The notes under the pieces were generated by a model, which worked only from the letters and a program-made list of their open reading frames with translations, was not told the DNA's origin and did no database searches. Made by a program: the position numbers and the translations under genes. This document shows, piece by piece, positions 4,181 to 57,084 of a stretch of DNA of 64,000 nt. This DNA is from Candidatus Latescibacterota bacterium (GTDB lineage Bacteria > Latescibacterota > UBA2968 > UBA8231), in contig OZ242214.1 in the NCBI GenBank assembly GCA_965206595.1, forward strand, positions 2,592,001-2,656,000, read 5' to 3'. How positions within the stretch are numbered: the first letter of the stretch is position 1; each line of letters starts with the position of its first letter.

Positions 4181-4295
4181 GGGTGCGGCTCTCTTCGACG
4201 GTTGTCACCGCGCAAGTGAACGGTTGGCGGAAGTGCCATTCGAAAGGTCGCTTTCGGCAAGAGGCCGGGCAATGGACCGCCGCCCCCGAGGTCGA

Positions 4296-4324
4296 TTGAC
4301 ACTGCCGGAACCCGCCGTTACCGT
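4296..4324 (+). promoter_or_regulatory. Sigma70-type promoter
   Basis: TTGACA-N17-TACCGT upstream of ORF 4363. Confidence 0.5.
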
Positions 4325-4362
4325 CACGCCGACCGGCCCCCTGAACGGCGTCGAGCCGACCA

Positions 4363-5106
4363 TTGCCCCCCATGCTCTCCTTCAACCGCCTTGCCGCTAT
4401 CCTCCCCGTAGCGGTTGCCGCCTCCGTCCTCATCCCCTGGACCGCCGACGACTTCGACAGAAACGCCGCTCTCGACATCGAGCTGGTGCGCTCCGGGAAG
4501 GTCGAGTACCGGGGAATCGAGGCCAGCTTCGAGGAGCTGTCGCGGGCTTACGCGCTTACGGTCTTTTCCGCAGCGGAGTTCCTCGGCTGGGCGGCGGTCC
4601 CCAACCCGACCCATCCCGAGGCGGAGGCCCTGGTCACCTGCCGCTTCCGCGTCGCCGCAGTGGCCCCCCGTCCTGCCGCTGCCGGCGCGCTCGCCGAGGA
4701 GGCGCGGCAGCGCTCGGTCCCCTCCCTCGAGGTCACCTGGTGTCTCAACACCCTCGCCGGCATCGGGATCACAGCGCACGACGCTGTTTCGCGCGACGCC
4801 GTCGCCACCTTCCGCGGCACTGTCGACGACTTCCTCGACCGCCTCGTTCTCGTCGCGGAAGGGAGCGCCTGCCGGCGCCGGGGCCCGGGGGCCGGCCACG
4901 CCGTCGTCGACACCCTGGAGGCCGGAACCGCGCTCGTGCGCGAGGAGGAAGCGGGGGAATGGACGCGGGTGCGGCCGGCCGGCTCCAGCGTGCACGGAGC
5001 CGCAGCGGAGGGAAGCGGCTGGCTGCGCAGCGACCGGCTGGTGCGGGTGTCGGAGATCGATCGAGAGGTCCCCCGGAACCAGGGGAATCCACCCCGGAAG
5101 GAGTAG
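4363..5106 (+). CDS. Exported hypothetical protein with C-terminal SH3b-like domain
   Basis: Signal-like N-terminus; RRRGPGAGHAVVDTLEAG...WTRV...GWLRSDRL. Confidence 0.55.
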   Translation: MPPMLSFNRLAAILPVAVAASVLIPWTADDFDRNAALDIELVRSGKVEYRGIEASFEELSRAYALTVFSAAEFLGWAAVPNPTHPEAEALVTCRFRVAAVAPRPAAAGALAEEARQRSVPSLEVTWCLNTLAGIGITAHDAVSRDAVATFRGTVDDFLDRLVLVAEGSACRRRGPGAGHAVVDTLEAGTALVREEEAGEWTRVRPAGSSVHGAAAEGSGWLRSDRLVRVSEIDREVPRNQGNPPRKE

Positions 5107-5153: not shown

Positions 5154-5197
5154 GTCGAGTGGCCTGTTGCGGCAGGCCGTGCTTTGTAAAACAACCA

Positions 5198-5392
5198 TAT
5201 CGGCGCAGGTGTCCGCTGCCGACGGCAGCGGAAGAATAGGGAAGGCAGTGCAAATCTGCCGCGGTCCCGCCACTGTGACCGGTAGAACGGCCCTCGGGCC
5301 GAAGCGTCCCGGCGACAGCCACTGATCCCACCTGCGGATTGGGAAGGAGCCGGACGGCGTCCTACCGGAAGTCAGGAGACCTGCCTGCGACC
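5198..5392 (+). ncRNA. Cobalamin (AdoCbl) riboswitch
   Basis: AGGT...AATAGGGAA, CCCGCCACTGT, AGCCACTG, GGGAAGG and B12-box AGTCAGGAGACCTGCC, upstream of a btuB-like gene. Confidence 0.95.
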
Positions 5393-5430
5393 GAGGTGAA
5401 CGGAACCCTTCGGCAGAAAGGTGGTTACCG

Positions 5431-42476: not shown

Positions 42477-42743
42477 ATGAACGCACGCCGACACCGATCC
42501 TCCATTCTCCGCCGCCCGCGGATTCCCGGGGCGGCTGCTGCTTGCGGGCTCTTCGCCGCCGGCATCCTCCTGGCCCCGGGTACCGCGGCGGCCGCGGAGG
42601 AAACCGGCTTCATCCTCAACACCTTCTCGTTCCTCGTCTGGGGAGCCCTGGTGATGTGGATGTGCGCCGGCTTCACCATGCTCGAGGCCGGATCGGTGCG
42701 CTCCAAGAACGCCTCGATGATCTGCCTGAAGAACATCGGGTAG
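42477..42743 (+). pseudogene. amtB: Ammonium transporter, 5' fragment truncated by an IS1-family element
   Basis: GALVMWMCAGFTMLEAGSVRSKNA..KNIG, then a stop codon inside the TIR. Confidence 0.9.
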
Positions 42744-43034
42744 TGTGTCAATCTGAAATAAATGCTTACCCAATCCAGTGAACAAAATTGACTAATAATC
42801 TGTATAAGCGTATGTTCTCATTCGGGACAATGGCCGTTTTCGAAAACCCGACTTGGTCGGGTGCAGTGGGGAATACGATACCTGTTGGTACCGGACCAGA
42901 ACATCGCGTAACCGGAGCCAAGGGAATACCCATAGAACAGCCGGTAAACGGCCGTTGTTCCAGCGCCCGGCCTGTCTCATGCGGAGACAGCCGCCATACC
43001 TCCCACTTGGGACTGGGGGGAAGGGGACAACGAA

Positions 43035-43601
43035 ATGAGGCGCATAATTGCAGTAGTGTTCGGATTGGCACTATGGGGATGTGGCGATCAGACCCTATCT
43101 CCGGTAGCGCCGAAGCTTGTAGCAGAGGGAGATTCAACGGCAACAGATGCAGGAAACAATGCGGCACAGTGCGTCGTCGTAAATATTCAGGGCGACAACA
43201 TCCAAGTTCACGGAGCCTCGGATGTGAACATCGATACGGTAGCCGTGTCCACGGTAACGGACACCGTCGTAGTCCAAGCAGGGTTTTCGATGTTGTTGTT
43301 GGAGTTCCAGGGCTACAATGACAACAGTCTGGACTGGGTCTCCAATAGAGAAGGGTGGACTTACTGGGATGAGAGAATCTCGGAAGAGTCCGTACGTGGC
43401 GTGTTTATGGCTACTACCGAATGGCTCGAAGCCCCGCCTGCAGATTGGACGCCGTTCGATTCCTTTCCAGATGTGCAGGAAGAACATGAATTGACTGTTG
43501 GGGATGGTTACATCTTCGTCAAAGACCCCCAACAGGAATTTCAGCGTTACAGCGAAGGCAGCACGAGGATGGGTTACTATTTGGGGATTGTGCTATTTTA
43601 G
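43035..43601 (+). CDS. Lipoprotein, hypothetical (transposon cargo)
   Basis: MRRIIAVVFGLALWGC lipobox-like signal. Confidence 0.7.
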   Translation: MRRIIAVVFGLALWGCGDQTLSPVAPKLVAEGDSTATDAGNNAAQCVVVNIQGDNIQVHGASDVNIDTVAVSTVTDTVVVQAGFSMLLLEFQGYNDNSLDWVSNREGWTYWDERISEESVRGVFMATTEWLEAPPADWTPFDSFPDVQEEHELTVGDGYIFVKDPQQEFQRYSEGSTRMGYYLGIVLF

Positions 43602-43676: not shown

Positions 43677-43901
43677 ATGCCTAAGGGACCGAATGGACAA
43701 ACAAGGCCAGCAGGGGTCACTCAGTGTGCCGTGCACGTGGCCAGGATTGCCATTGGCGAAATCGAGGACACTGGTTACAAGCATCCTGTCCAAGCAGAGA
43801 ATGGAAGCAAGGGCGGGAAGGCTCGTGCTTCCATTCTGACGCCTGAGCGGCGTAGGGAAATTGCCAAGGCTGCTGCTGAAGCTCGATGGAAGACAACTTA
43901 G
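43677..43901 (+). CDS. Small basic protein of the kind that accompanies IS1-like transposases
   Basis: MPKGPNGQTRPA...IAIGEIE...GSKGGKARA..LTPERRREIA..AA.ARW; AGGAG RBS. Confidence 0.8.
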   Translation: MPKGPNGQTRPAGVTQCAVHVARIAIGEIEDTGYKHPVQAENGSKGGKARASILTPERRREIAKAAAEARWKTT

Positions 43902-43904
43902 TTT

Positions 43905-44234
43905 GTGATTAATGAGGAAGGAAAAGAACGACAATTGATTTACGCCATTATTTCCCTCGACAACGAGAAATCAGAAGAAATCCATGAAGCAATTGCCAGC
44001 ATTAAATCGACTATCTCAGCTGAAACCGCAACAAAAAAATTCCGCCAAGTACAAAGCATTTATCAGCCTAATGACTTGCGTCATATCAGCTTTATAGCAT
44101 TTTCCGGCAGCGTAAATGAACTGTGCGACTTGCTTGGACTAATTGAAATAAAGCACCTTGCAGTTGCCTTAAGTCATATCGGAGGCAGGGGGTCAACCGA
44201 ATTGGTTAATTGGATAAAGGCATATAATGGCTGA
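43905..44234 (+). CDS. Hypothetical protein (low-GC cargo)
   Basis: 109 aa; overlaps the next ORF. Confidence 0.55.
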   Translation: MINEEGKERQLIYAIISLDNEKSEEIHEAIASIKSTISAETATKKFRQVQSIYQPNDLRHISFIAFSGSVNELCDLLGLIEIKHLAVALSHIGGRGSTELVNWIKAYNG

Positions 44235-44505
44235 CGGACAGGAGTTTGGTGGGGGGACAAAGAAGCTTACTGAAGGCGGAAGGGTCAATATAGAACTTAT
44301 TGAGCATCGGGTAAATGAAATCGCTAACGACACAAAACAGCAAGGAAAAGAAATCAATTCGATCAATATAATTGTCACAGAGATTAAGACGGGGATGATT
44401 ACGAGAAAGGAGATTTTTACAACTGGAGTTATCATTATGGCAAGTCTTTTGATCGCTGTTTTTGCAGCGTTCGTTGCCATTTTCTTTCAGAAAATAACCG
44501 CATAA
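44227..44505 (+). CDS. Coiled-coil protein with C-terminal TM helix (cargo)
   Basis: 92 aa; hydrophobic C-terminus GVIIMASLLIAVFAAFVAIFF. Confidence 0.6.
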   Translation: MADGQEFGGGTKKLTEGGRVNIELIEHRVNEIANDTKQQGKEINSINIIVTEIKTGMITRKEIFTTGVIIMASLLIAVFAAFVAIFFQKITA

Positions 44506-44508
44506 CCC

Positions 44509-45414
44509 TCACGAAAACACCAAATCCTCGTCGTTGTAATCTCTTTCTCGCTTCTTGTATTTCTTCGGACGCTTTGGCTTCGGCGTCCGCTTGTCGATCA
44601 GCCCCACAATCCATTCCAGGCTCTTCTCTTCCTTGGTCAGCCCCGCTGCAACTGCTGGTGTGGTTTCAAGAGTCATGTGCGGCCGTACCCAGTTGTAGTA
44701 GGTGAAGAATAGGTGGAGCATATACCTGTGGTTCTCAAGTTTCTTTGAGAACCCGTTTGTCTTTCGTGTATAGCGGCGCATACCCATACGCATGGTAAGG
44801 TTCATGCGCTCAACGTATGATGTGCCCCCTTCTTCGCTGTCGCCGATAACGATCACCTTTTCGGTTTCCGTTACGGTGGAGTTGCTATATCCTGCTCCAT
44901 CGTCGTACCCGTACGACTTCACAAGTTGGGTATAGTTGACGCGGTTCCCGAATGTACTATGGACAGCCTCGGGGTAAGCGCCAAAGGCATCGGATGTGAT
45001 TTGGACCTTGGGTTTTCGGGGCAGGATGATCTTCCCCTTCAACTTACCCATGAAGCGTTTGGCCGTTGTCAGGTTCCTGCCACCAACTTCCCAAGCAATC
45101 ATCAACTTGGTGTCGGGATCGAGTGCCGTCCATGTCCAAATGCTTCCAGCCTGAGAAGGCGCGGCTTGCGCTTGCGGGACATTCTTCTCTTTGGCATGGA
45201 GAAATGACCATATTTCATCCAATTCTACGCGCGCACACCTGATTCGGCGTGCATGCACTGCCTCATAGATGCTGCAAGCCTTCCCCGCATCTACGAGCAG
45301 TTTTACCACCGAATTGACAGCACAATCAGCCGACCTGGATATGGAGCGGATCGATGCACCTTCTACCAGCATGGAGAGGATGGTAACTCGTTTATCTATT
45401 GACAGTTGTTTCAT
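44509..45414 (-). CDS. IS1-family DDE transposase
   Basis: Start MKQLS after AGGAG; HTH LVEGASIRS; LDEIWSF, WTWTALD, ITSDA, TSYVERMNLTMR, YNWVRPH. Confidence 0.9.
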   Translation of the reverse strand: MKQLSIDKRVTILSMLVEGASIRSISRSADCAVNSVVKLLVDAGKACSIYEAVHARRIRCARVELDEIWSFLHAKEKNVPQAQAAPSQAGSIWTWTALDPDTKLMIAWEVGGRNLTTAKRFMGKLKGKIILPRKPKVQITSDAFGAYPEAVHSTFGNRVNYTQLVKSYGYDDGAGYSNSTVTETEKVIVIGDSEEGGTSYVERMNLTMRMGMRRYTRKTNGFSKKLENHRYMLHLFFTYYNWVRPHMTLETTPAVAAGLTKEEKSLEWIVGLIDKRTPKPKRPKKYKKRERDYNDEDLVFS

Positions 45415-45471
45415 TTCGTTGCTCCTTGACGTTAGTGAACAAAAAGGATACATTTATACACTATCAAAGGC

Positions 45472-45491
45472 CGAGGCATAGAAATGCCTCG
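45472..45491 (-). terminator. Hairpin immediately 3' of the tRNA
   Basis: CGAGGCAT-AGAA-ATGCCTCG, 8-bp stem; weak U tail. Confidence 0.45.
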
Positions 45492-45492
45492 T

Positions 45493-45584
45493 TGGCGGCG
45501 AGGGTGGGATTCGAACCCACGATGCCTCTCCCGAGACATGCCTGATTATAAGTCAGGTGCGTTTATCCACTCCGCCACCTCGCC
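45493..45584 (-). tRNA. Class II tRNA with UAU anticodon and serine-type body, encoded CCA
   Basis: GGCGAGG/CCTCGCC acceptor, G73-CCA; D arm GCG/CGC; anticodon arm CCTGA-CTTATAA-TCAGG; V arm ATGTCTC-GGGA-GAGGCAT; T arm GTGGG-TTCGAAT-CCCAC. Confidence 0.92.
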
Positions 45585-45750
45585 CTTTGTCCCGCCGATT
45601 GCAGTCGGCGGTGATTCTTCCTGCTACGGCGTCCCGCCAATCTCGGCGGGACGCCGTTCTGTTTTTACCTGAACATAAATATACGAAATTTTCTGCTTAG
45701 CCGGAAGGGATTTCTCCCCAGGTTGGTTTACATAATGTGTCGATCTGGAC

Positions 45751-45788
45751 AAAAAAGAACCCGGCTCTTCACTGAGAGTCGGGTTCTT
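45751..45788 (-). terminator. Intrinsic terminator after ORF 45808-46332
   Basis: AAGAACCCGACTCT-CAGTGA-AGAGCCGGGTTCTT plus TTTT on the minus strand. Confidence 0.75.
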
Positions 45789-45807: not shown

Positions 45808-46332
45808 TTAGACTGACTGACTTTCCTGTGCAACAAGAGTGTGAGGTCGGATGTCCCATAGCTGCTTGAATAGCCTTTGGTACCAACTCACCTTGGGAAA
45901 CTCACTTGGGTCGTTGCCCTGCGCTCGCATCATTTCAATATGACAGACTATATCCAGCACACGGAGTGGCTGAGGCTCCCTTGACTCGATGGCCAGCCGT
46001 TGTGCTGTGATGTCGGCCAGGAACCCTTGCAGATCGTCATCCTGCAAGTTTCTGCTTCTTTCCATCTGTTGTTGAAGTTGAATGAAGCCCTGCTTGAGTT
46101 CTCCGTGCAGCAAGGCTTTTTCGTTTACCCTGAAGACGAGCATGAATCCTAAAAGAGCAGCACTTGCCACAGAAATCGCATGGTGGCCTTCTATTACGGC
46201 ATAGATAGACAGCATAAAGGCGCCAAATAGAAACCAGTTATGCGCGGCCCTGAGAAAGGATTCGCGGTACGTATGATACCGAATAGATCGGCAGATGCCG
46301 AAATGGAGATTGTGGTAAACTGTGTCAGTCAT
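45808..46332 (-). CDS. Two-TM helical protein, SLATT-like
   Basis: Start MTDTV; RSIRYH..R..F, two hydrophobic helices, KALLH..LK..F; family assignment tentative. Confidence 0.55.
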   Translation of the reverse strand: MTDTVYHNLHFGICRSIRYHTYRESFLRAAHNWFLFGAFMLSIYAVIEGHHAISVASAALLGFMLVFRVNEKALLHGELKQGFIQLQQQMERSRNLQDDDLQGFLADITAQRLAIESREPQPLRVLDIVCHIEMMRAQGNDPSEFPKVSWYQRLFKQLWDIRPHTLVAQESQSV

Positions 46333-46513
46333 TTCCCTTCTTTTTTGGTGGGGGAGCCGGAGGTAATGTGTCGGAGATTGGCTCGGGGGCAATGTCGTCC
46401 CTAACTGCTCTCTTTTCTTGTTCCTCCGTGAGGATTTTTCTTTCTGTATCTGGCCGAGAAGGTGCAGGCTGCGTATCGGGTTTGGGTTCGGATGATCTGC
46501 GCTTGGATGCCAT
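46325..46513 (-). CDS. Small disordered Pro/Lys-rich protein
   Basis: 62 aa; AAGG RBS; overlaps the start of the next ORF. Confidence 0.45.
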   Translation of the reverse strand: MASKRRSSEPKPDTQPAPSRPDTERKILTEEQEKRAVRDDIAPEPISDTLPPAPPPKKKGND

Positions 46514-46754
46514 TTCCCTTTTTCCTTAGTTCAATGACTGCTGAGACTGTTCACCCGGAAAATACTGAAAGCCTGCAACGGTGCAAAGAAGTTTCCTCTC
46601 CCCAGTCCCCCAAGGGGATTATTGGAGGGGTTAGCCCTCAATTCTGGGTGGGCGATCCGTCACCAGAAATGGTGACAGAATTTCAGACTGATACACTACC
46701 CCGCATTCTTGGTCAGCACCTGCACCTCATCTTACGGACCTTCTCAACATCCTT

Positions 46755-47132
46755 GGTGGGAAGGAATCGAACAAGCATCAGGACAAGAAGCTGAACGCCG
46801 GACGCGGGACCGTCGGCAAGCAGGCGGTCGTCGGGATCCGCAATCGCAAGACGAAGGAGATCCGGGCGGAGCTGGTCGGCGATACCAAGGCCGACACCCT
46901 GCAGAGCTTCGCGGCCGATTTCGTCGAGCAGGAAGCCGTCAAGTACACGGACGAATCACCGTCCTACGGGGGCATGAAGAACCACGCCAGCGTTAGCCAT
47001 TCCACCGGTGAGTACGTTCGCGAGATGGCCCACATCAACGGGATGGAGTCCTTCTGGGCCACGTTGAAGCGAGGCTACGCCGGAACCTTCCACCGTCGGC
47101 CGGCGAATTCATTAACGGACTTAATCCAGTAG
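46755..47132 (+). pseudogene. IS1595 transposase fragment
   Basis: GGKESNKH.KKLNAGRGTVGK, YTDESPSY, HSTGEYVR..HINGMESFWATLKRG. Confidence 0.85.
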
Positions 47133-47134
47133 AT

Positions 47135-47347
47135 TTGGCAGAGTTAGATTCTGAGCTACAAAAGAGGAAGAGAGCGAGGAAAATGACGAATGAAGAAATA
47201 GGCAGCGCTGCAGAATCAGCGCTTCACCGTCGAACCAAGGCCAAGCGGATTTCGGAGATCTCCCGGTTGGTCAGTGCTCTCCGTGAGGCCCGGAAAGATT
47301 TCGACCAAGCTAATCAGCGCTTGGCTGACCTCGGATATCCTATCTGA
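47135..47347 (+). CDS. Small hypothetical protein
   Basis: 70-aa helical, basic ORF within the IS1595 cargo. Confidence 0.4.
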   Translation: MAELDSELQKRKRARKMTNEEIGSAAESALHRRTKAKRISEISRLVSALREARKDFDQANQRLADLGYPI

Positions 47348-47351
47348 TCAC

Positions 47352-47513
47352 ATGAGCCAGGATAATCAGAAGCAGCAGAAGCAGAAGCCAGGTCGCCCCG
47401 AGCGCCTCATGTCATTCGACGGCACCGCGGAGGAGTTAGCCCAGGCGCTGTTCGCCCGGGCCCGAAAACCTGTCCGGCCTAAGCAAGAGCAGGAGGATGA
47501 GACTGAGAAATGA
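47352..47513 (+). CDS. Small protein (GRP...GTAEELAQALF)
   Basis: ATG at 47352; resembles small IS1595 passenger ORFs. Confidence 0.45.
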   Translation: MSQDNQKQQKQKPGRPERLMSFDGTAEELAQALFARARKPVRPKQEQEDETEK

Positions 47514-47528
47514 TCAGGGGAGGGTACT

Positions 47529-48119
47529 TTGGCGCGTAGAGCGGATCAAACGAAAGGCGTCTTTTGCCTTGAAACGCATAAGTGGTTTAACAGGAAGGAT
47601 GAGACCACGATTGAGCCCATCCTGGATCTACTGCGAAAACAGCAGGGGAGGAATTGGTCTTACCGCTACCGAGATGTCGCTACGGAAGCTGAATTCCGGT
47701 TCTTTCTTGGGGAATACCTGACACCCATATACGATAGCTTTCCCGTTCTGTACCTGGGATTTCATGGCGAAAATGATAGCATTATCCTTGCGGACAAAAC
47801 GGTCATGTCGCTGGACCGAATCCGACTCGCAATAAATGGCCGGTGCAATGAGCGGGTAATATACTTCGGTTCCTGCGGCACCATGAGCGTACATGGCAAA
47901 CGGCTGAAGTCGTTTTGCAAATCGACTGAGGCGCTAGCCGTATGCGGATTCAAGGAAGAAATCGATTGGTTGCAGGGGGCGGCCTTCGAGCTTCTTATCC
48001 TGGGAACGCTTCAGAGCGTGCCGTTTACTAAGGAGGGGATGGAAGAATTCGACCAACGCCTGAAGGCGCAATCGCCCGGTCTATACAGAAATCTCGGGTT
48101 CCGCTTGGAGACGGCCTGA
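47529..48119 (+). CDS. DUF6642-like protein (possible caspase/CHAT-like fold)
   Basis: GVFCLE..W, YRDVAT..E, LYLGFHG, YFGSC, GFKEEIDW. Confidence 0.55.
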   Translation: MARRADQTKGVFCLETHKWFNRKDETTIEPILDLLRKQQGRNWSYRYRDVATEAEFRFFLGEYLTPIYDSFPVLYLGFHGENDSIILADKTVMSLDRIRLAINGRCNERVIYFGSCGTMSVHGKRLKSFCKSTEALAVCGFKEEIDWLQGAAFELLILGTLQSVPFTKEGMEEFDQRLKAQSPGLYRNLGFRLETA

Positions 48120-48184
48120 GCGCAGAACGTGCACATGGCGGCGTAAACCGGCGGGGAGCCGGTTTACCATCGTATATAATTCCC

Positions 48185-49100
48185 TTCGGAAGCCTATCGC
48201 ACAACCAAGCGCGTGCGCCGGCCCGAGGGGCAGGGGCTGAACGATCCCTACGTCAGATTCTTCCGCATGGCGGAACGGCGCATCGCCGAGAAGACGGGCC
48301 AAGGCGTGGTCTGTTTCATCTCCAACTATATCTGGCTCGACGGGCTGTCCTTCACCGGGATGCGGGAGCGCTACCTCGAAGCGTTCGACGCCATCCGCGT
48401 CGACTGCCTGAACGGCGACAAGTACAAGACCGGCAAAGTGGCGCCTGACGGCTCCCCGGACCCGAGCATCTTCTCCACCAAAGGCGATCCAGTCGGTATT
48501 CAAGTCGGAACTGCGATTACGACGCTGGTACGCAAAGCCGATCACGCCCCGGCCACCGAGATCGGCTTTCGCCATCTCTGGGGACAGGCCAAGCCTGCGG
48601 AGTTGACGGCGACAGCGGAGAAGGAACCGGACGCGCTCTACGACTCCATCGAGCCAGTCTTGCCGCTTGGTTTGCCGTTCGCACCAACTGCTGCAAGCGA
48701 GGATTGGTTCGGCTGGCCGGCGTTGCCAGATCTGTTCCCGGTTTCGTTTCCGGGCGTCAAAACCAGCCGCGACGGATTCCTTGTCGATACCGATCTGGAC
48801 CGCCTCAAGGCGCGCATTACCGAATACTTCGACGAAACTCTGAGCCACCATGAGATCGCCCGGCGCTACCCGGCGGTGATGAAGAGCACGGGACTATTTA
48901 ACGCCCGTGCGGTGCGCGATGCGCTGCTAGAACGGGGTGGACCGAATCGATTCTGGATTCATCCGCTTCGCCTATAGGCCGTTCGACAATCGCTGGCTCT
49001 ATTGGGAAGGGGAGAGCGCCCTGCTTGACCGCCCCCGCCTCGACTATCAACCGCATGTGTTCGGGGGGAATTTGTGGCTGTCTGCCGCCGAATCGGCCCC
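48185..49100 (+). pseudogene. Type ISP/IIG restriction-modification enzyme, internal fragment
   Basis: LNDPYVRFFRMAERRI..GVVCFISNY.WLDG.SFTGMR, GVKTSRD, YRPFDNRWLYW; frameshift near 48950. Confidence 0.75.
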
Positions 49101-52526: not shown

Positions 52527-53141
52527 ATCAATCGGGCGATGCGCTTGGGACTGACGCCGGGCCCCTCCTCGGCCAGTTCGACCCGTATCCTAGGCGCCCC
52601 GTAGGTGCCCCGAGAGCGTGGGTGGATCTGCTCGACGCGCCCCTTGAGCACGGCATCGGCTCGGGTGCCCGACGGCGGGCGTTTCAACCAAGCGTAGTAG
52701 CCGCTGGGGAGACCTTCAGCACGCGGAACATCGTCAGCACCGGAAAGGGGCTTGGTGCGCTCTCAGGAACTCGTAGACTGGCCGGACCCCGAGTCGGCCT
52801 CGGGAGCGAACCACGCCGTGGCTTTTGCCAAGATCTCCCGTTCTATACGCAGTTGCTTGTTCTCACGGGGAAGGCGCCGCAACTTCTCCTGCTCCGTACT
52901 GGAGGGCCCGTCGCGGCGCACCCCCTCGTCGCGTTCGGCCTAGATCACCCAGTTCCGGATCGTCTGCCCGGACGGCTCGAATTCCTTGGCCAGCGCTTCC
53001 GGGCTATACGACCCACTCGTACGAGTTCCACCATCTGTTGCCGGGTTTCCGGTGGATACGGACCATGTGGTTTCGACATGATTGGACACCCTCCTTTCCC
53101 TCTCCAAGAAATGAAGTGTCCACGAAATCGGGTCAACTCCA
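52527..53141 (-). mobile_element. IS3-family element remnant
   Basis: IRL TGGAGTTGACCCGATTTCGTGGACAC; orfA YPPETRQQMVELVR..LAKEFEPS.QTIRNW; orfB SRGTYGAPRI. Confidence 0.8.
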
Positions 53142-53163
53142 GGTAGTATGAAAAGGCTGACGC

Positions 53164-53502
53164 TTGGAACTCGCTTTCGAATCAAGGCAGCTCCGTTTGA
53201 TCTGTGAGAACGAAGCTTTTGCTAAGGAGCATCTTGGACTTGAGGTCGCTGCAGTTCTCAAACATCGCTTAGCGGACCTACGTGCTGCTAGTTCCATTGC
53301 TGACCTTATGGTGGGAAATCCTCGTCGACTTGCAACTGGAGCCCACAACTATTTGGCAGTGGACCTATGCCAAGGGTATCACATCCGTCTCACTCCGAAT
53401 CACCCCAAGAATCCGGTAAGCGTTACGGATGACCTTGACTGGAAAAAGGTTACCCGGATCAGGATAACTCACATACAGAGAGGGGATCATGACCAATCCT
53501 GA
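53164..53502 (+). CDS. HigB/RelE-like toxin
   Basis: MELAFESRQLR..CE...G..VA..LKHRLADLRAA; overlaps the downstream HTH gene. Confidence 0.7.
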   Translation: MELAFESRQLRLICENEAFAKEHLGLEVAAVLKHRLADLRAASSIADLMVGNPRRLATGAHNYLAVDLCQGYHIRLTPNHPKNPVSVTDDLDWKKVTRIRITHIQRGDHDQS

Positions 53503-54604
53503 AGGATTCCGGCCTGATTGGATCTCTGCACCAGGGGATACCATTTTAGACATTCTGGAGGATCGGGAGATTTCACAGGAATCGTTTGGGAAGAGTATGG
53601 GCATCTCTAATTTGGAGACAAATTACCTTCTCAGCGGCCGCTCTACGGTAACAATGGCGATTGCTCGTCGGCTCACGAGAATACTCGGAGCTTCTGTAGA
53701 ATTCTGGATTACCCGCGATTTCCAATTTCGGCAAGATGCCAAACCCATAGAGGATGAGGAAGAAAATTGGCTTCGGCAACTTCCAGTGGGAGACATGATC
53801 AAGTTTGGATGGCTAGAACCGCCACCTCATCCATCAGAAGAATTCGAGGCGTGCAAAGCATTCTTCGCGGTGTCTAGTGTCCGTGAATGGCACCAGTATT
53901 ATGGAAGCCCCAGAGAAATGGCGTCCTATAGATCTTCGCCTTCCTTTGAGTCGCACCAAGGAGCGTTGGCAGCTTGGCTTAGGCAAGGCGAAATCCTGGC
54001 TACCAAGATTAACTGCCAGAAGTGGCACGCGGATAGATTCCAGAAGTCCTTAGCCAGAATTCGTGTGCTTACGCGCCAAAAAGACCCGAGTCGGTTTGTC
54101 CCACAGTTGCAGGAAGCGTGTTCGGAAAATGGAGTAGCCACGGTAATCGTTAGGTCGCCCAGTGGTTGCCGGGCAAGTGGTGCTACCAGATTCTTATCTC
54201 GAAACAAAGCTATTCTCCAACTCAGTTTTCGTTACCTAACGGACGATCAATTCTGGTTTACTTTTTTTCACGAGGCAGGTCATCTCCTGCTGCACGGGGA
54301 GAGGCGGTTCTTCTCAGCAACACTAGGAGACGAGAAACCTTGGATCTTAGAAGGTTTCGAGATGCCAGTCGCTGCGGGAGAAGAAGAAGAAGAAGAAGCA
54401 AATCAATTTGCCGCCGACAATTTAATTCCTTCGGAATTCCAGAGAAACCTTCTCTCGCTTCCTCCCGAGTCGAAAACAGTGCTCCGATTTGCCCGTCGCG
54501 TGGGGGTATCCAGCGGAATCATAGTAGGACAATTGCAGCATCACGGCCGAATCGGCTACGACCAGATGAACAGGCTCAAGCGGCGATTTGTATGGCAGGA
54601 TTGA
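53489..54604 (+). CDS. HigA-like XRE HTH fused to an ImmA/IrrE metallopeptidase
   Basis: SAPGDTI.D.LE, ASVEFW; AAWLRQGE, FWFTFFHEAGH, EEEANQFAA. Confidence 0.9.
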   Translation: MTNPEGFRPDWISAPGDTILDILEDREISQESFGKSMGISNLETNYLLSGRSTVTMAIARRLTRILGASVEFWITRDFQFRQDAKPIEDEEENWLRQLPVGDMIKFGWLEPPPHPSEEFEACKAFFAVSSVREWHQYYGSPREMASYRSSPSFESHQGALAAWLRQGEILATKINCQKWHADRFQKSLARIRVLTRQKDPSRFVPQLQEACSENGVATVIVRSPSGCRASGATRFLSRNKAILQLSFRYLTDDQFWFTFFHEAGHLLLHGERRFFSATLGDEKPWILEGFEMPVAAGEEEEEEANQFAADNLIPSEFQRNLLSLPPESKTVLRFARRVGVSSGIIVGQLQHHGRIGYDQMNRLKRRFVWQD

Positions 54605-54605
54605 A

Positions 54606-55532
54606 CTAGCTGCGGAAGGGGATGAATCTGTGAGGGCTCTTCTGCCAGTTACAGAGAGCGTCCTCCAAGACCTGCATCCCGAGATTCAACTCGGACCCTA
54701 ATTCGACCAGCCACTGGTTGATTTGGGCTGGTGTTGCAGGGGTTCCGAACAAGAGACGGGCGCCCCGGATCGGGCCAGTCGAATTCTGAATGTACGGGGA
54801 GTCCGCCTCAACATTGGCTAGTCCTAACTTGCCTAACATGGTCAAATAGTCGAATCGAGCGGTCCTACCGAAACTAGCGATTTGCTCCATGCTGTGGTAA
54901 AGCTCACGGAAGGCCACCCGTGGAGACCCACGGGCATTCTGGAGGACTTGGTTCATTAGTCCCTCGTGGGTTCTGGGAGGCCCAACCCACTGAACATATG
55001 TTTGAACGGCGGCGCCAGTTCCGGTGGGGGAGTATGCATCGAGGCTTTGATACTTTCGATGGTTGCCAAACCCACCGGAGATTCTCAATGCATCTTGGTG
55101 GGAGGCTAACCACGCTCGAAAGCGGGCTGGATCGGCACTTGTGGTAGCCCAATCCCATCTGTGAGGTCCCCCAAGAGCGCCGTATACTTCGCGCGCATAC
55201 CGCCAGCCGCCTCGTTTATGTTTTCCGAAATGGACGAGGAAAAACACCATCCAGAAGGCTTCCTCCGTTTGGCCTTGGCGGTGAAAAACGATTGCGGCCC
55301 TCAGAGGGTCAAAATAGCCAGGATTAGAGGGTTCTGAACGACGTTGGGAAATGTCCCTTGTTCTGAGGACCGACACGAATCGGACGCGCCTTGTGCTCTC
55401 GATGACCTGGGCGACAAAGGATTCACGATGCGCGAGGTCTGCCAAGCCTAGAAGTTGGCGGCTATGCCGGTGAAACGCAGCTAACTGGTGGGAAAGTCGC
55501 TGCGCTGCGTGGCGGTCACGGGGCCTAATCAT
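54606..55532 (-). CDS. aGPT-Pplase clade 3-like protein (HhH-glycosylase-related)
   Basis: FDPLRAA, EAFW.VF..HFG, FGNHRKYQSL, FGRTARFDYL.MLG, TGP.RGARLLFG, EDALCNWQKSP. Confidence 0.75.
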   Translation of the reverse strand: MIRPRDRHAAQRLSHQLAAFHRHSRQLLGLADLAHRESFVAQVIESTRRVRFVSVLRTRDISQRRSEPSNPGYFDPLRAAIVFHRQGQTEEAFWMVFFLVHFGKHKRGGWRYAREVYGALGGPHRWDWATTSADPARFRAWLASHQDALRISGGFGNHRKYQSLDAYSPTGTGAAVQTYVQWVGPPRTHEGLMNQVLQNARGSPRVAFRELYHSMEQIASFGRTARFDYLTMLGKLGLANVEADSPYIQNSTGPIRGARLLFGTPATPAQINQWLVELGSELNLGMQVLEDALCNWQKSPHRFIPFRS

Positions 55533-56356
55533 TCCCTTTCCTCGATCATCCGGGCGATCCAATCGCCGATTGCGAGAATGACCTCCTTTGTGACGCCAAA
55601 ACTGCTCTGAAGGTTATGGTTAAAGCCGAGAATAGAAAGATCGCGGTCAAGGGGAACCCCGCAAACGTCACTTATAACGCCTGTATAAGCGATACCTTTC
55701 ACCTTGTGACCTGAAGCTCTTCCTAAAAACCAATCTGGGACGACTTCTGCTGTCAGGCAAGACCCCGAAAGAGATTGGAAACCCCTTACGACGGAAGTGC
55801 CATTTAGGATTAGAGTCCGAACCGAGGAATCCCGAAGAATAGTAGCCAGGGTGTCTCCAGCTAGGGTAAGGAGTAGGGAGCGCTGTTGGTTAGGGAGATC
55901 CGCCCATTTGCTTAGTGTTGCATAGGGTACTAGATCTAGATGGCAAGCGTTAAATAGAGGTGGATAGTAGGAGACTCTAGCACCCCTAAGTATTGAGTCC
56001 AGCTTTTTGAACCAGACATCATAAGGATTGGAGGCAAAATAAGATCGGTAAGACTCAAGAATCGATTCAAGATGCCTAGCGTCGGCATCAGCCCAAGTCT
56101 GTAACCCCAGGGAGGCAAGGGTTGGAAATCTGCGGAGTTCTCCCTTCAACTCATTACCTGAGGCATCCATGAATTCCCGGGAACTAGGATTAATACCTAT
56201 AGTTGCTAGCTGGGGAGTGGACAAATCTCCGAAGGAAATAACCGGACAACTCCAAGGTATGATGCCGGCCTGAGTAGTCGTAGGCCTGTCGAGGTAATCT
56301 ATCAACTTGGCTGCGGCCGAAAGCACCCCATGAGGAGTCCGCCTAGGGGAGATCAT
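55529..56356 (-). CDS. Uracil-DNA-glycosylase-like superfamily protein (putative)
   Basis: PVISFGD..ATIGINPSSREF (motif A-like), HLDLVPYAT..W, LILNG, NHNLQSS. Confidence 0.55.
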   Translation of the reverse strand: MISPRRTPHGVLSAAAKLIDYLDRPTTTQAGIIPWSCPVISFGDLSTPQLATIGINPSSREFMDASGNELKGELRRFPTLASLGLQTWADADARHLESILESYRSYFASNPYDVWFKKLDSILRGARVSYYPPLFNACHLDLVPYATLSKWADLPNQQRSLLLTLAGDTLATILRDSSVRTLILNGTSVVRGFQSLSGSCLTAEVVPDWFLGRASGHKVKGIAYTGVISDVCGVPLDRDLSILGFNHNLQSSFGVTKEVILAIGDWIARMIEERE

Positions 56357-57084
56357 GTTAAGCGATTCATGTTAAGCGGTTATGGAGTCTGGTAATGTAA
56401 GGGTGGTAGACCTCTGAAGACATTTCCCCTTTTAGGTGTGAAATCTTCTTAAGATTATGGTCTTTGTAAGCTCGAAAGACCAAGAGCAGCCTAATGAGAT
56501 CGGACCAGTAAGAGGGTATAGTGTCAAGGGTGTTTGAGTCAAATTGCCCTTTAATCCTGATAGCGCGTTCTGCGGCGAGCACGAGGTCAATTGCTGCCTG
56601 GGGGTTTCCTTCGGGCATAGGCTCCATCACGTTCTGGGTAGGTTGCCAGCCCTCTTGGAGGAACCTTGTGGCCATTTCCTCATTTTTTGTGTACAAGTGG
56701 AGACTGCCGACCATGTGTTTATATCTCCCGAGGTTTGCAGAGAGAGTGCGGGCGATGATTTCCTGGATCATGGTAAAACAGAAAATGTCGTGAGGTAAAC
56801 CAACGTAAGCGTCGTTAGACCTCATGTGGGTAATCATCTGAAGGTGGTTGCGTCGGAGCATGAATTGGAGAGTACAGGTACACGGAACGTCCTTGTGTGG
56901 TACCAAAAGGTCATTTGCATCGAACAATTGAACTACCGCTTGTCGGGATTGGGGTTTCCGACGAAGAATAGTAACTACATTCTCAAACTGATTGAGCCCG
57001 CGCCAGTTGAATAGTCTTGGGCCGTAGCCACCAAAGAGCGTGGTTCCTTCTGCGTGCAATTTATAATCGGGGATGTAGTAGGAT

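Follow-up and report, generated by a model that had tools for sequence, protein, structure and literature searches.

Only one tRNA gene is present in the window, as we call the whole 64-kb stretch of Candidatus Latescibacterota DNA that was analysed. It was found by ARAGORN at 45493-45584 on the minus strand (92 nt, anticodon tat) and lies inside a unit of about 3.96 kb, bounded by 21-nt inverted repeats, which holds the tRNA, an IS1-family transposase and five further open reading frames (ORFs). The body of this tRNA is of the serine type while its anticodon, UAU, is that of an isoleucine tRNA, and tRNAs of the same kind recur in related transposons. The features of the unit and of its left flank are as follows.

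45493-45584, minus strand: class II tRNA (long variable arm) of the 7/5 form, anticodon UAU, G73, encoded CCA (ARAGORN, Rfam RF00005 and reading of the sequence)
44509-45414, minus strand: IS1-family DDE transposase, 301 aa, from an ATG after an AAGGAG ribosome-binding site; the frame is open to 45453
42739-42759, plus strand: terminal inverted repeat, GGTAGTGTGTCAATCTGAAAT, abutting the truncated amt gene; junction fixed by diverging contigs
46680-46700, minus strand: second terminal inverted repeat, its reverse complement identical to the first at 19 of 21 positions
45473-45490, minus strand: hairpin GAGGCAT-TTCT-ATGCCTC, directly 3' of the CCA and ahead of the transposase ribosome-binding site
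45745-45788, minus strand: hairpin (inverted repeat, arms 45755-45768 and 45775-45788), then a T run on the minus strand
45808-46392, minus strand: 194-aa cargo ORF on the upstream side of the tRNA, without a family match
43677-43901, plus strand: accessory ORF of 74 aa on the strand opposite to the transposase, C-terminal motif GGKARA..LTPE.R.EIA.AA.ARW, conserved in the IS family by tblastn
43035-43601, 43905-44234 and 44227-44505, plus strand: three cargo ORFs, with 7 ATA codons together, no family match
42477-42743, plus strand: 5' fragment of an ammonium transporter gene (first 88 codons, Pfam Ammonium_transp), cut by the element

Positions 45496-45584 match the Rfam tRNA model RF00005 with 64.8 bits (E 8e-12; gathering score 29), and all stems are intact. 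The acceptor stem, GGCGAGG/CCTCGCC, is paired at seven of seven positions, including G1:C72, G2:C71 and C3:G70, and the T arm, GTGGG-TTCGAAT-CCCAC, has a stem of five pairs (GTGGG/CCCAC); this is the 7/5 form, and an eighth acceptor pair is impossible, with U8 standing opposite C65. The 3-bp D stem consists of G10:C25, C11:G24 and G12:C23, followed by G13/A22, and carries a D loop, AGTGGATA, of 8 nt (9 nt in the Rfam alignment). The anticodon stem CCTGA/TCAGG closes the loop CTTATAA, with U33, the UAU anticodon, A37 and A38, and the variable region of 20 nt is made up of an unpaired C, a 7-bp stem with one G-U pair, the loop GGGA and another unpaired C. Every structural detail given in the original prediction (a 92-nt 7/5 cloverleaf with TAT, a 7-bp variable arm, G73 and CCA) is thus present, and its combination of a serine-type body with a UAU anticodon was borne out by ARAGORN, Rfam and our reading of the sequence, as was the placement of the tRNA within IS1-type terminal repeats: the repeats are real, and the tRNA is internal cargo of an IS1-family element.

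The anticodon loop and U39 together (45547-45553, minus strand) read TTATAAT, which holds a perfect -10 hexamer, TATAAT. The TTATAA of the loop is its own reverse complement; a convincing -35 was not seen. The A31:U39 pair occurs in 21 of 30 aligned members of the tRNA(UAU) family described below.

The frame at 44509-45453 (minus strand) matches Pfam DDE_Tnp_IS1 (PF03400, E 3.5e-8, above cut-off), and the transposase has 7750 homologues, many of them named IS1 family transposase; its D, D and E motifs are conserved in the alignment. From the CCA end of the tRNA to the transposase start codon is 78 nt on the same strand, with the small hairpin and the AAGGAG between them. The hairpin at 45745-45788 looks like a terminator of the 194-aa ORF, in which case the tRNA would need a promoter of its own. 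The GC content of the element segment is 46-53%, as against about 67% around it. The left end of the insertion is fixed at 42739/42740, the point at which metagenome contigs with an uninterrupted amt gene part from the window; the 3' remainder of amt was found nowhere in the 7.05-Mb genome, in which the element is single-copy, and the element was not found in 60 relatives of the host. No target-site duplication was seen, the flanks being different, and with that duplication absent, the 3' part of amt missing and only one copy in the genome, the element shows no sign of recent mobility. None of its five cargo ORFs matched a Pfam, NCBIfam or PADLOC family.

The tRNA was compared with those of its host, whose set is full and normal, with Ser UGA, CGA, GGA and GCU, Sec, Ile GAU and three CAU tRNAs. 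A seryl-tRNA synthetase (SerRS) with its N-terminal arm is encoded in the genome, as are TilS and a CAU tRNA resembling the host tRNA-Ile, a candidate tRNA-Ile2. Among the host class II tRNAs, G73 is found in all four Ser tRNAs and A73 in all five Leu tRNAs and in the Tyr tRNA. The GAGTGG spacing of the D loop is shared by the window tRNA and host Ser CGA, GGA and GCU, while the host Leu tRNAs have one base more before the GG. The same three Ser tRNAs have a variable region of 18-20 nt with a 6-7-bp stem, with which the window tRNA agrees (host Ser(UGA) has 15 nt and a 4-bp stem, host Leu 13-17 nt), and the variable arm is flanked by one unpaired base on each side, as in host tRNA-Ser(GCU). 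Charging by SerRS ignores the anticodon, and the determinants of the E. coli enzyme are G73, G1:C72, G2:C71, C11:G24 and the long variable arm. The class I body and A73 expected of a tRNA-Ile are absent; host Ile(GAU) and the Ile-like CAU tRNA are 75-77 nt long.

The best full-length BLAST matches of the window tRNA in phages and plasmids are tRNA-Ser, at 78-80% identity, and the three that were inspected carry ACU, CGA and CGA. UAU lies at least two substitutions from every serine anticodon compared (UGA, CGA, GGA, GCU, ACU). An origin from the host's own tRNAs was rejected, given that identity to any host class II tRNA is at most 71%; among the 60 relatives there was no full-length match above 74%. 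G12:C23 stands in place of the C12:G23 of the host Ser tRNAs. The lack of G20b was considered as a mark against serine identity and set aside, the same kind of D loop being present in ordinary Ser tRNAs: a GAGYGGYTTAA D loop occurs in 12 tRNAs from 11 of 168 genomes of the host phylum, nearly all with ordinary Ser anticodons (by our own reading of the matched strings, four were decoded in detail as GCU, CGA, UGA and GGA, one has CAU, and seven have the same UGA/GGA loop strings). The host phylum also has a class II Ser-like tRNA (L267, G125:C27:46398-46463) with the loop CUCAUAA, that is, the anticodon CAU, which would be read as Met, or as Ile2 if lysidinylated.

A pattern scan for class II tRNAs with TTATAA in the anticodon loop, over one genome per prokaryote species and a viral collection, gave 48 genome loci, with about 3 expected by chance on our own rough estimate, and 2 viral loci; ARAGORN calls tRNA(tat) in 48 of the 50. 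By record title they come from Acidobacteriota, Bacteroidota, Pseudomonadota, Verrucomicrobiota, Chloroflexota, Planctomycetota, Thermodesulfobacteriota, Clostridia and two archaeal bins. Counting the window tRNA, the 51 members have G73 in 42 cases, U73 in 8 and A73 in 1; seven acceptor pairs are formed in 30 and the acceptor is imperfect in 21, and CCA is encoded in 17. The closest relative of the window tRNA is that of L055, identical in 70 of 89 aligned columns. No homologue of the 194-aa cargo ORF was found in the 50 loci.

The family is conserved as a tRNA. In an alignment of the 30 members with perfect acceptor stems, whose first helix is therefore perfect by selection, 91.4% of the cells pair, as against 63.9% in shuffled alignments and 39-49% with the pairing partners shifted along the alignment; both sides vary in 23 of 27 pairs, and covariation is 0.72 versus 0.18, a level reached in 0 of 500 shuffles. 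G73, G1:C72, G2:C71 and C11:G24 are invariant or nearly so among these 30. In the nine tRNAs linked to IS1 elements pairing is complete (100%) in the acceptor, T and D stems; as many as four pair types occur at a position, and a single one at each of G1:C72, G2:C71 and C11:G24. The near-fixed positions of the family are what we take to be the determinants of SerRS. These data are strong evidence that the family is maintained by selection on the cloverleaf.

The acceptor stem is not equally regular throughout: 14 of the 51 members have only five of seven acceptor pairs, with the first two or three 5' bases unpaired in L059, L060, L064, L067, L068, L073, L074, L079, L080 and others. Flavobacterial members with five of seven pairs adjoin S24-peptidase/HTH repressor genes and CBASS genes (SMODS, NUDIX). 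When the neighbours of the tRNA(UAU) genes were clustered by BLAST and one or two members of each cluster scanned against Pfam, those found to recur were IS1595-family transposases (a cluster of four loci), S24-peptidase/HTH repressors (six loci, four of them with CBASS genes) and Cas3 (a cluster of four loci); OLD-type nucleases, a DNA methylase and also housekeeping genes came up in addition when 134 neighbouring ORFs were tallied by Pfam match. The window tRNA belongs to a widespread tRNA(UAU) family found in IS1 and IS1595 elements and in other mobile or defence-island contexts.

Eight of the 50 loci have, by tblastn, a homologue of the window transposase (33-46% identity) close to the tRNA. 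Five of them, L053, L083, L091, L051 and L092, repeat the order of the window, with the tRNA immediately upstream and both genes on one strand; L050, L055 and L081 have other arrangements. Among these five, both repeat ends were found in two, where repeats of the form GGTAGTG..TCAGT.. enclose tRNA and transposase together (L053, 2274-2298/4915-4939; L083, 5020-5041/7173-7194), and a left repeat was found 0.9 kb upstream of the tRNA in L091 and L051. Repeats homologous to those of the window are present in seven loci in all, five of them from the transposase-first scans described next (L053, L083, L106, L129, L152, L191, L233), and since in these and in the window they enclose the tRNA, it is cargo rather than a neighbour; insertion of an IS beside a host tRNA is ruled out for all eight. 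Enclosing repeats were not found in L114, L127, L143, L221, L228 and L240, some of these being short contigs.

Scans that began from the transposase gave 80 viral and 80 metagenome loci, with transposases 40-51% identical to that of the window. A tRNA on the same strand and no more than 500 nt upstream was present in 6 of 80 viral loci and, among the 72 metagenome loci whose upstream sequence was long enough, in 5; UAU is not found on any of these tRNAs. By ARAGORN and our own reading, L106 carries a Ser-like class II tRNA with GUA that scores 77.3 bits against a model of the UAU family, and L114 a class II tRNA with AUA; L129 and L191 carry Leu-like tRNAs with UUA, which resemble ochre suppressors. 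ACU tRNAs with bodies that look Arg-like by eye occur in L127, L221, L228 and L233, class I tRNAs with GCU in L152 and with AGU in L143, and ordinary-looking tRNAs in L240 (Thr, CGU), L228 (Ala, UGC) and L221 (Lys, UUU). About 140 of 152 elements of the family have no tRNA, and a covariance-model search of these for hidden degenerate tRNAs gave only a few weak hits (for example L238, 482-549 and 557-629). In a tree of 165 transposases, from which the partial L092 and L051 were dropped, tRNA-bearing elements are scattered, some being close sisters of tRNA-less ones, and the window transposase has a long branch of 1.62; a single origin of tRNA carriage is not supported, the UAU label requiring five changes and the other-tRNA label five, which is no tighter than chance, since 160 and 166 of 500 shuffles, respectively, need as few. 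In this IS family, then, the cargo slot varies in content and is occasionally filled by a tRNA, which is often aberrant. As to whether homologues of the window tRNA carry ordinary serine anticodons, a point on which the original prediction had staked itself, the homologous elements keep UAU and a compensated cloverleaf, but TTATAA was required by the pattern; in the samples taken from the transposase side the slot carries other anticodons, including GUA on a tRNA of the same family.

Several further traits of these elements may be recorded here. The accessory ORF (about 75-90 aa, ending GGKARA..LTPE.R.EIA.KAA.ARW) is conserved in the IS1 clade, being found by tblastn in most of L097-L256 and in L053, L083 and L051; it shares the strand of the transposase and precedes it by 1-2 kb (L053 2314-2580, L083 5101-5373); in the window it is on the opposite strand. 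It matches no Pfam, NCBIfam or PADLOC family. Directly upstream of the tRNA are ORFs of about 150-170 aa (L083 5472-5981, L053 2632-3084, L091 2390-2839, L051 844-1341, L092 6672-7139) which by eye look coiled-coil-like at the N-terminus and resemble one another in a C-terminal motif (..L..L...G.L.....G.Y.K), though BLAST finds no similarity among them; the window element has its unrelated 194-aa ORF at that position. L053 has at 4272-4829, between transposase and right repeat, an ORF resembling ClpP and phage head-maturation proteases, below the NCBIfam cut-offs. A second short tRNA-like element directly follows the class II cargo tRNA in L106 (3822-3889) and L114 (3724-3791), with a GGGGCTG... 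acceptor strand and a T arm and without normal D and anticodon arms (25.7 and 22.3 bits against the family model). Putative promoters of the form ATGCTTGAC..(17)..TATAAT-like lie within the last 60 nt ahead of the transposase and end a few bases before its ATG in L129, L152, L106, L143 and L127, and their closeness to the ATG suggests leaderless or near-leaderless transposase messages.

Elsewhere in the window, low-GC DNA extends past the right repeat (46710-48120) with small ORFs and a DUF6642 protein (47529-48119), followed at 48213-48977 by a fragment weakly similar to the C-terminal domain of Type ISP restriction enzymes. A second low-GC stretch (0.48-0.54) lies at 53000-57000, and a cobalamin riboswitch at 5190-5402 on the plus strand (107.4 bits).

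The meaning of ATA in the elements themselves was assessed in an alignment of 167 transposases, with column profiles built only from genes other than those tested. Val scores -7.4 and Thr -32.9 in the ATA columns of the nine UAU-linked transposases, and Ser is not among the six best; the controls behave as expected, with ATT/ATC read as Ile, Ser codons as Ser and Thr codons as Thr. Likewise AGT is Ser in elements with tRNA(ACU) or tRNA(GCU), TAY is Tyr in those with GUA or AUA, and there is no in-frame stop in the transposase of the ochre-suppressor element L129. ATA fits Ile instead (log-odds +18.6, n=35), which rules out a private element code with AUA as Ser: the transposase needs Ile at AUA, the tRNA therefore does not serve such a code, and any benefit must come by way of the cell or of invaders, or else the RNA itself must have some role. 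ATA falls in less hydrophobic columns than ATT/ATC in the six UAU-linked genes that share the strand of their tRNA (0.54 vs. 0.81, Mann-Whitney P 7e-5), while in other genes the two are alike (0.79 vs. 0.80); this does not point to Ser.

The explanation that we consider most probable, at a probability of roughly 0.45, is that the tRNA is charged with serine and acts as a weak missense suppressor at AUA. It is proposed because the body is of the serine type, because SerRS is blind to the anticodon and because the body directs charging in a nematode tRNA discussed below. SerRS would recognise the long variable arm with its single unpaired flanks, together with G73, G1:C72, G2:C71 and C11:G24, in a tRNA that we infer to be transcribed; the seryl-tRNA(UAU) would then compete at AUA with the lysidine-carrying tRNA-Ile2 of the host, and the outcome would be a low level of Ile-to-Ser missense suppression.

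A number of observations weigh against such a role, above all against an efficient one. The C3:G70 pair, already named as a caveat in the original prediction, departs from the A3:U70 of the host Ser tRNAs, all four of which have A3 (three acceptors start GGAGAGG and that of UGA starts GGAGGGC), though it is common to the GGCG subgroup of the family (L083, L084, L091, L092, L093). The conservation of UAU is subject to ascertainment bias, TTATAA having been part of the search pattern. The fit of ATA to Ile in the linked transposases includes the window gene itself, which has ATA at residues 6, 25 and 68, the last being the invariant Ile of the DEIW motif, also encoded by ATA in L081; an efficient inserter of Ser would thus harm the element's own transposase. 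The GUA tRNA belongs to the same family, yet the transposase beside it uses TAY as Tyr, which is not easily squared with a family that is efficiently charged with Ser. The host, too, would be affected: the expectation that a high-GC genome would hardly notice is weakened, since ATA, at 2.7 per 1000 codons and 6.8% of Ile codons, occurs in 1641 of the 2389 host ORFs of at least 300 aa that pass a GC3 filter (~69%), so that strong Ser insertion would be costly and touch most host proteins. No RNA run was found that covers the 4-kb stretch; the contigs compared with it, of which three have no recorded type and one is a presumed RNA run, match nothing beyond the amt flank, the generic T-arm region and some exact pieces at low depth. 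Finally, six tRNA(UAU) species of the allo-tRNA class, as CUA variants, were inactive in E. coli and two were lethal, and in the pertinent part of that paper the authors doubted a translational role for allo-tRNA(UAU), the six being irregular 8/4 forms (Mukai et al. 2017, NAR 45:2776, PMC5389517).

A second explanation, which we regard as unlikely, is that the tRNA-shaped RNA does not decode at all and serves the transposon otherwise, an idea along the lines of what Mukai et al. suggested for allo-tRNA(UAU): for instance as a processing site for RNase P and RNase Z or an insulator ahead of the transposase message, as an uncharged tRNA that stalls ribosomes at AUA, or as a signal at the DNA level. 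Its fixed position upstream of the transposase on the same strand, in the window and in the five loci with that order, would fit, as would the filling of the slot in related elements by unrelated tRNAs of many anticodons, the standard code of the element genes, the inactivity of the six allo-tRNA(UAU) variants as reported in the part of PMC5389517 cited above, and the TATAAT of loop and U39 with A31:U39 in most aligned relatives. A mere processing signal, however, would have no need of covariation over the full cloverleaf, of near-fixed G1:C72, G2:C71, C11:G24 and G73, or of the CCA encoded in a third of the family (17/51), all of which are expected under aminoacylation. In related elements, moreover, a promoter-like TTGAC..TATAAT of the transposase's own lies between the tRNA and the start codon, so that the transposase does not rely on a tRNA transcript, and the great majority of the family's elements do without a tRNA.

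Somewhat less probable still is a helper charged with isoleucine, comparable to the rare-codon tRNAs borne by phages, in which IleRS would read the loop (A35, U36, A37, A38) and AUA in the AT-richer genes of the element would be decoded independently of TilS in GC-rich hosts. The reading of ATA as Ile in the linked transposases, down to the DEIW Ile of the window element and L081, agrees with this, and the ORFs of the window element contain 12 ATA in 977 codons, well above the host rate; that the cargo genes contain ATA had been rightly noted beforehand. In the four UAU-linked transposases with GC3 above 0.6, a subgroup chosen post hoc, there are 18 ATA against 4.6 expected, but over all nine the excess is not significant (35 vs. 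27.6 expected from GC3, P 0.10). The body, furthermore, lacks the class I shape and the A73 of the host Ile tRNAs. Bacterial IleRS also uses A73, C4:G69, U12:A23 and C29:G41, none of which the window tRNA has, and the host already possesses TilS and an Ile-like CAU tRNA. In the nematode case the class II tRNA(UAU) was not charged by IleRS, according to the section of PMC3333845 that deals with it.

The original prediction had gone further than serine charging and cast Ser at AUA as a weapon against phages and plasmids based on codon bias, or as an addiction toxin, and this we hold to be improbable. Genes for tRNA(UAU) do stand beside CBASS (L064, L067, L073, L074), Cas3 (L085, L087, L088, L090) and OLD-type nucleases, an island neighbourhood being a weak indication; the host uses ATA less often than the element does; and induced Ser-inserting allo-tRNAs arrest and kill E. 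coli, as described in part of PMC5389517. The cargo ORFs, however, gave the proposed roles no backing from Pfam, NCBIfam or PADLOC, the last with 0 matches among eight window ORFs (five in the element and three just outside) and two cargo ORFs of related elements, and no antidote candidate could be identified. The element's own transposase and cargo contain ATA, as do 69% of the long host ORFs, and many related transposases are on contigs classed as viral, so the vehicle lives in phages also.

That the tRNA is a decaying or neutral passenger, a captured tRNA-Ser with a drifted anticodon, or an assembly error, is very improbable: the single copy beside a deletion and without target-site duplication, the imperfect acceptors in 21 of 51 relatives and the allo-tRNA(UAU) pseudogene described in a part of PMC5389517 would suit decay, but the stems are all intact, UAU is at least two substitutions from every Ser anticodon, the compensatory changes between elements with transposases of only 33-46% identity indicate long-term purifying selection, and, as to error, 99-100% of the words sampled from the 4-kb stretch are present in three runs of the source sample (evidence that does not stand apart from the assembly), and two other studies contain, at low depth, exact pieces of element sequence from beyond the tRNA.

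Seryl charging with weak suppression at AUA thus being preferred for the window tRNA, a broader and more doubtful proposal is that IS1-family transposons are natural vehicles that move suppressor tRNAs between phyla, as cargo which alters decoding in the recipient to the benefit of the element. The cargo would be Ser-type UAU tRNAs (also GUA and AUA), Leu-type ochre suppressors and the Arg-like tRNA(ACU); the effects would be Ser at AUA and read-through of UAA, and the element might gain if AT-rich competitors were crippled or the cell came to depend on it. Natural tRNAs in which body and anticodon point to different amino acids are of interest as raw material of genetic-code change and as tools of synthetic biology. 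If the window tRNA and its relatives are active, they would constitute a horizontally mobile source of proteome-wide mistranslation; if they are inactive in translation, they would point to a new function of RNA in the transposition or regulation of IS1-family elements.

The vehicle resembles other IS1-family insertion sequences with passenger genes in its single-ORF DDE_Tnp_IS1 transposase, in repeats that start with GGT and in the passenger DNA between them, and differs from them in adding a tRNA and the conserved small accessory ORF. The bacterial decoders of AUA, tRNA-Ile2 (CAU, with lysidine) and the rare tRNA-Ile(UAU), read the codon that the window tRNA would read, and the window tRNA has the A37, A38 context; they are class I with A73, however, and the window tRNA is class II with G73. 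UAU is generally missing from bacterial tRNA sets, as stated in part of PMC8007984. To an ordinary bacterial tRNA-Ser the window tRNA is similar, with its 7/5 form, G73, G1:C72, G2:C71, C11:G24, GAGTGG D loop, variable arm of 20 nt and 7 bp and an identical T arm; what sets it apart is UAU in place of NGA, GCU or ACU, C3:G70, G12:C23 and its place in a transposon of foreign composition. The nematode nev-tRNA-Ile(UAU), as presented in a portion of Hamashima et al. (2012, PMC3333845), is likewise class II with a UAU anticodon for a rarer codon; it is weakly expressed and is charged with Leu as its body directs, not by IleRS. It differs in being eukaryotic, derived from tRNA-Leu and chromosomal rather than transposon cargo.

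The allo-tRNAs of Mukai et al. (PMC5389517) are, in the part of that study dealing with them, tRNAs with a long variable arm, G73 or U73, presumed Ser identity and non-Ser anticodons, among which UAU is the most abundant; they lie near transposon-related ORFs and toxin-antitoxin genes, a link to transposable elements was tentatively suggested, and those of Ser identity with Leu anticodons insert Ser in E. coli. The window tRNA has the long variable arm, the G73, the UAU and the nearby transposon genes. Allo-tRNAs, however, have an 8/4 or 9/3 branch and a D arm like that of tRNA-Sec, with a long stem and a tetraloop, whereas the window tRNA has a 7-bp acceptor with a 5-bp T stem and a normal Ser-type D arm with a 3-bp stem; and where allo-tRNA(UAU) is described there as irregular or degenerate, the window tRNA and its relatives include regular 7/5 cloverleaves. 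That the 7/5 form sets it apart from the published 8/4 and 9/3 forms was correctly foreseen, while the published predominance of UAU had been overlooked. A literature search turned up no 7/5 Ser-type tRNA(UAU) and no tRNA gene as IS cargo, although the supplements of PMC5389517 may include 7/5 forms or this very transposase.

For the commonest form of allo-tRNA, that with UAU, no explanation had been given earlier beyond a tentative link to transposable elements. To this are now added a regular 7/5 Ser-type tRNA(UAU), selection on its cloverleaf, suppressor-like tRNAs in sister elements and a mobile vehicle, which, unlike that of the allo-tRNAs, is defined, with an IS1-family transposase, homologous terminal repeats and the tRNA within; a loose association of tRNA and transposon thereby becomes a testable system. 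The closest known kind is allo-tRNA(UAU), whose two defining structural features the window tRNA lacks and whose Ser-like identity elements, anticodon and association with transposons it shares.

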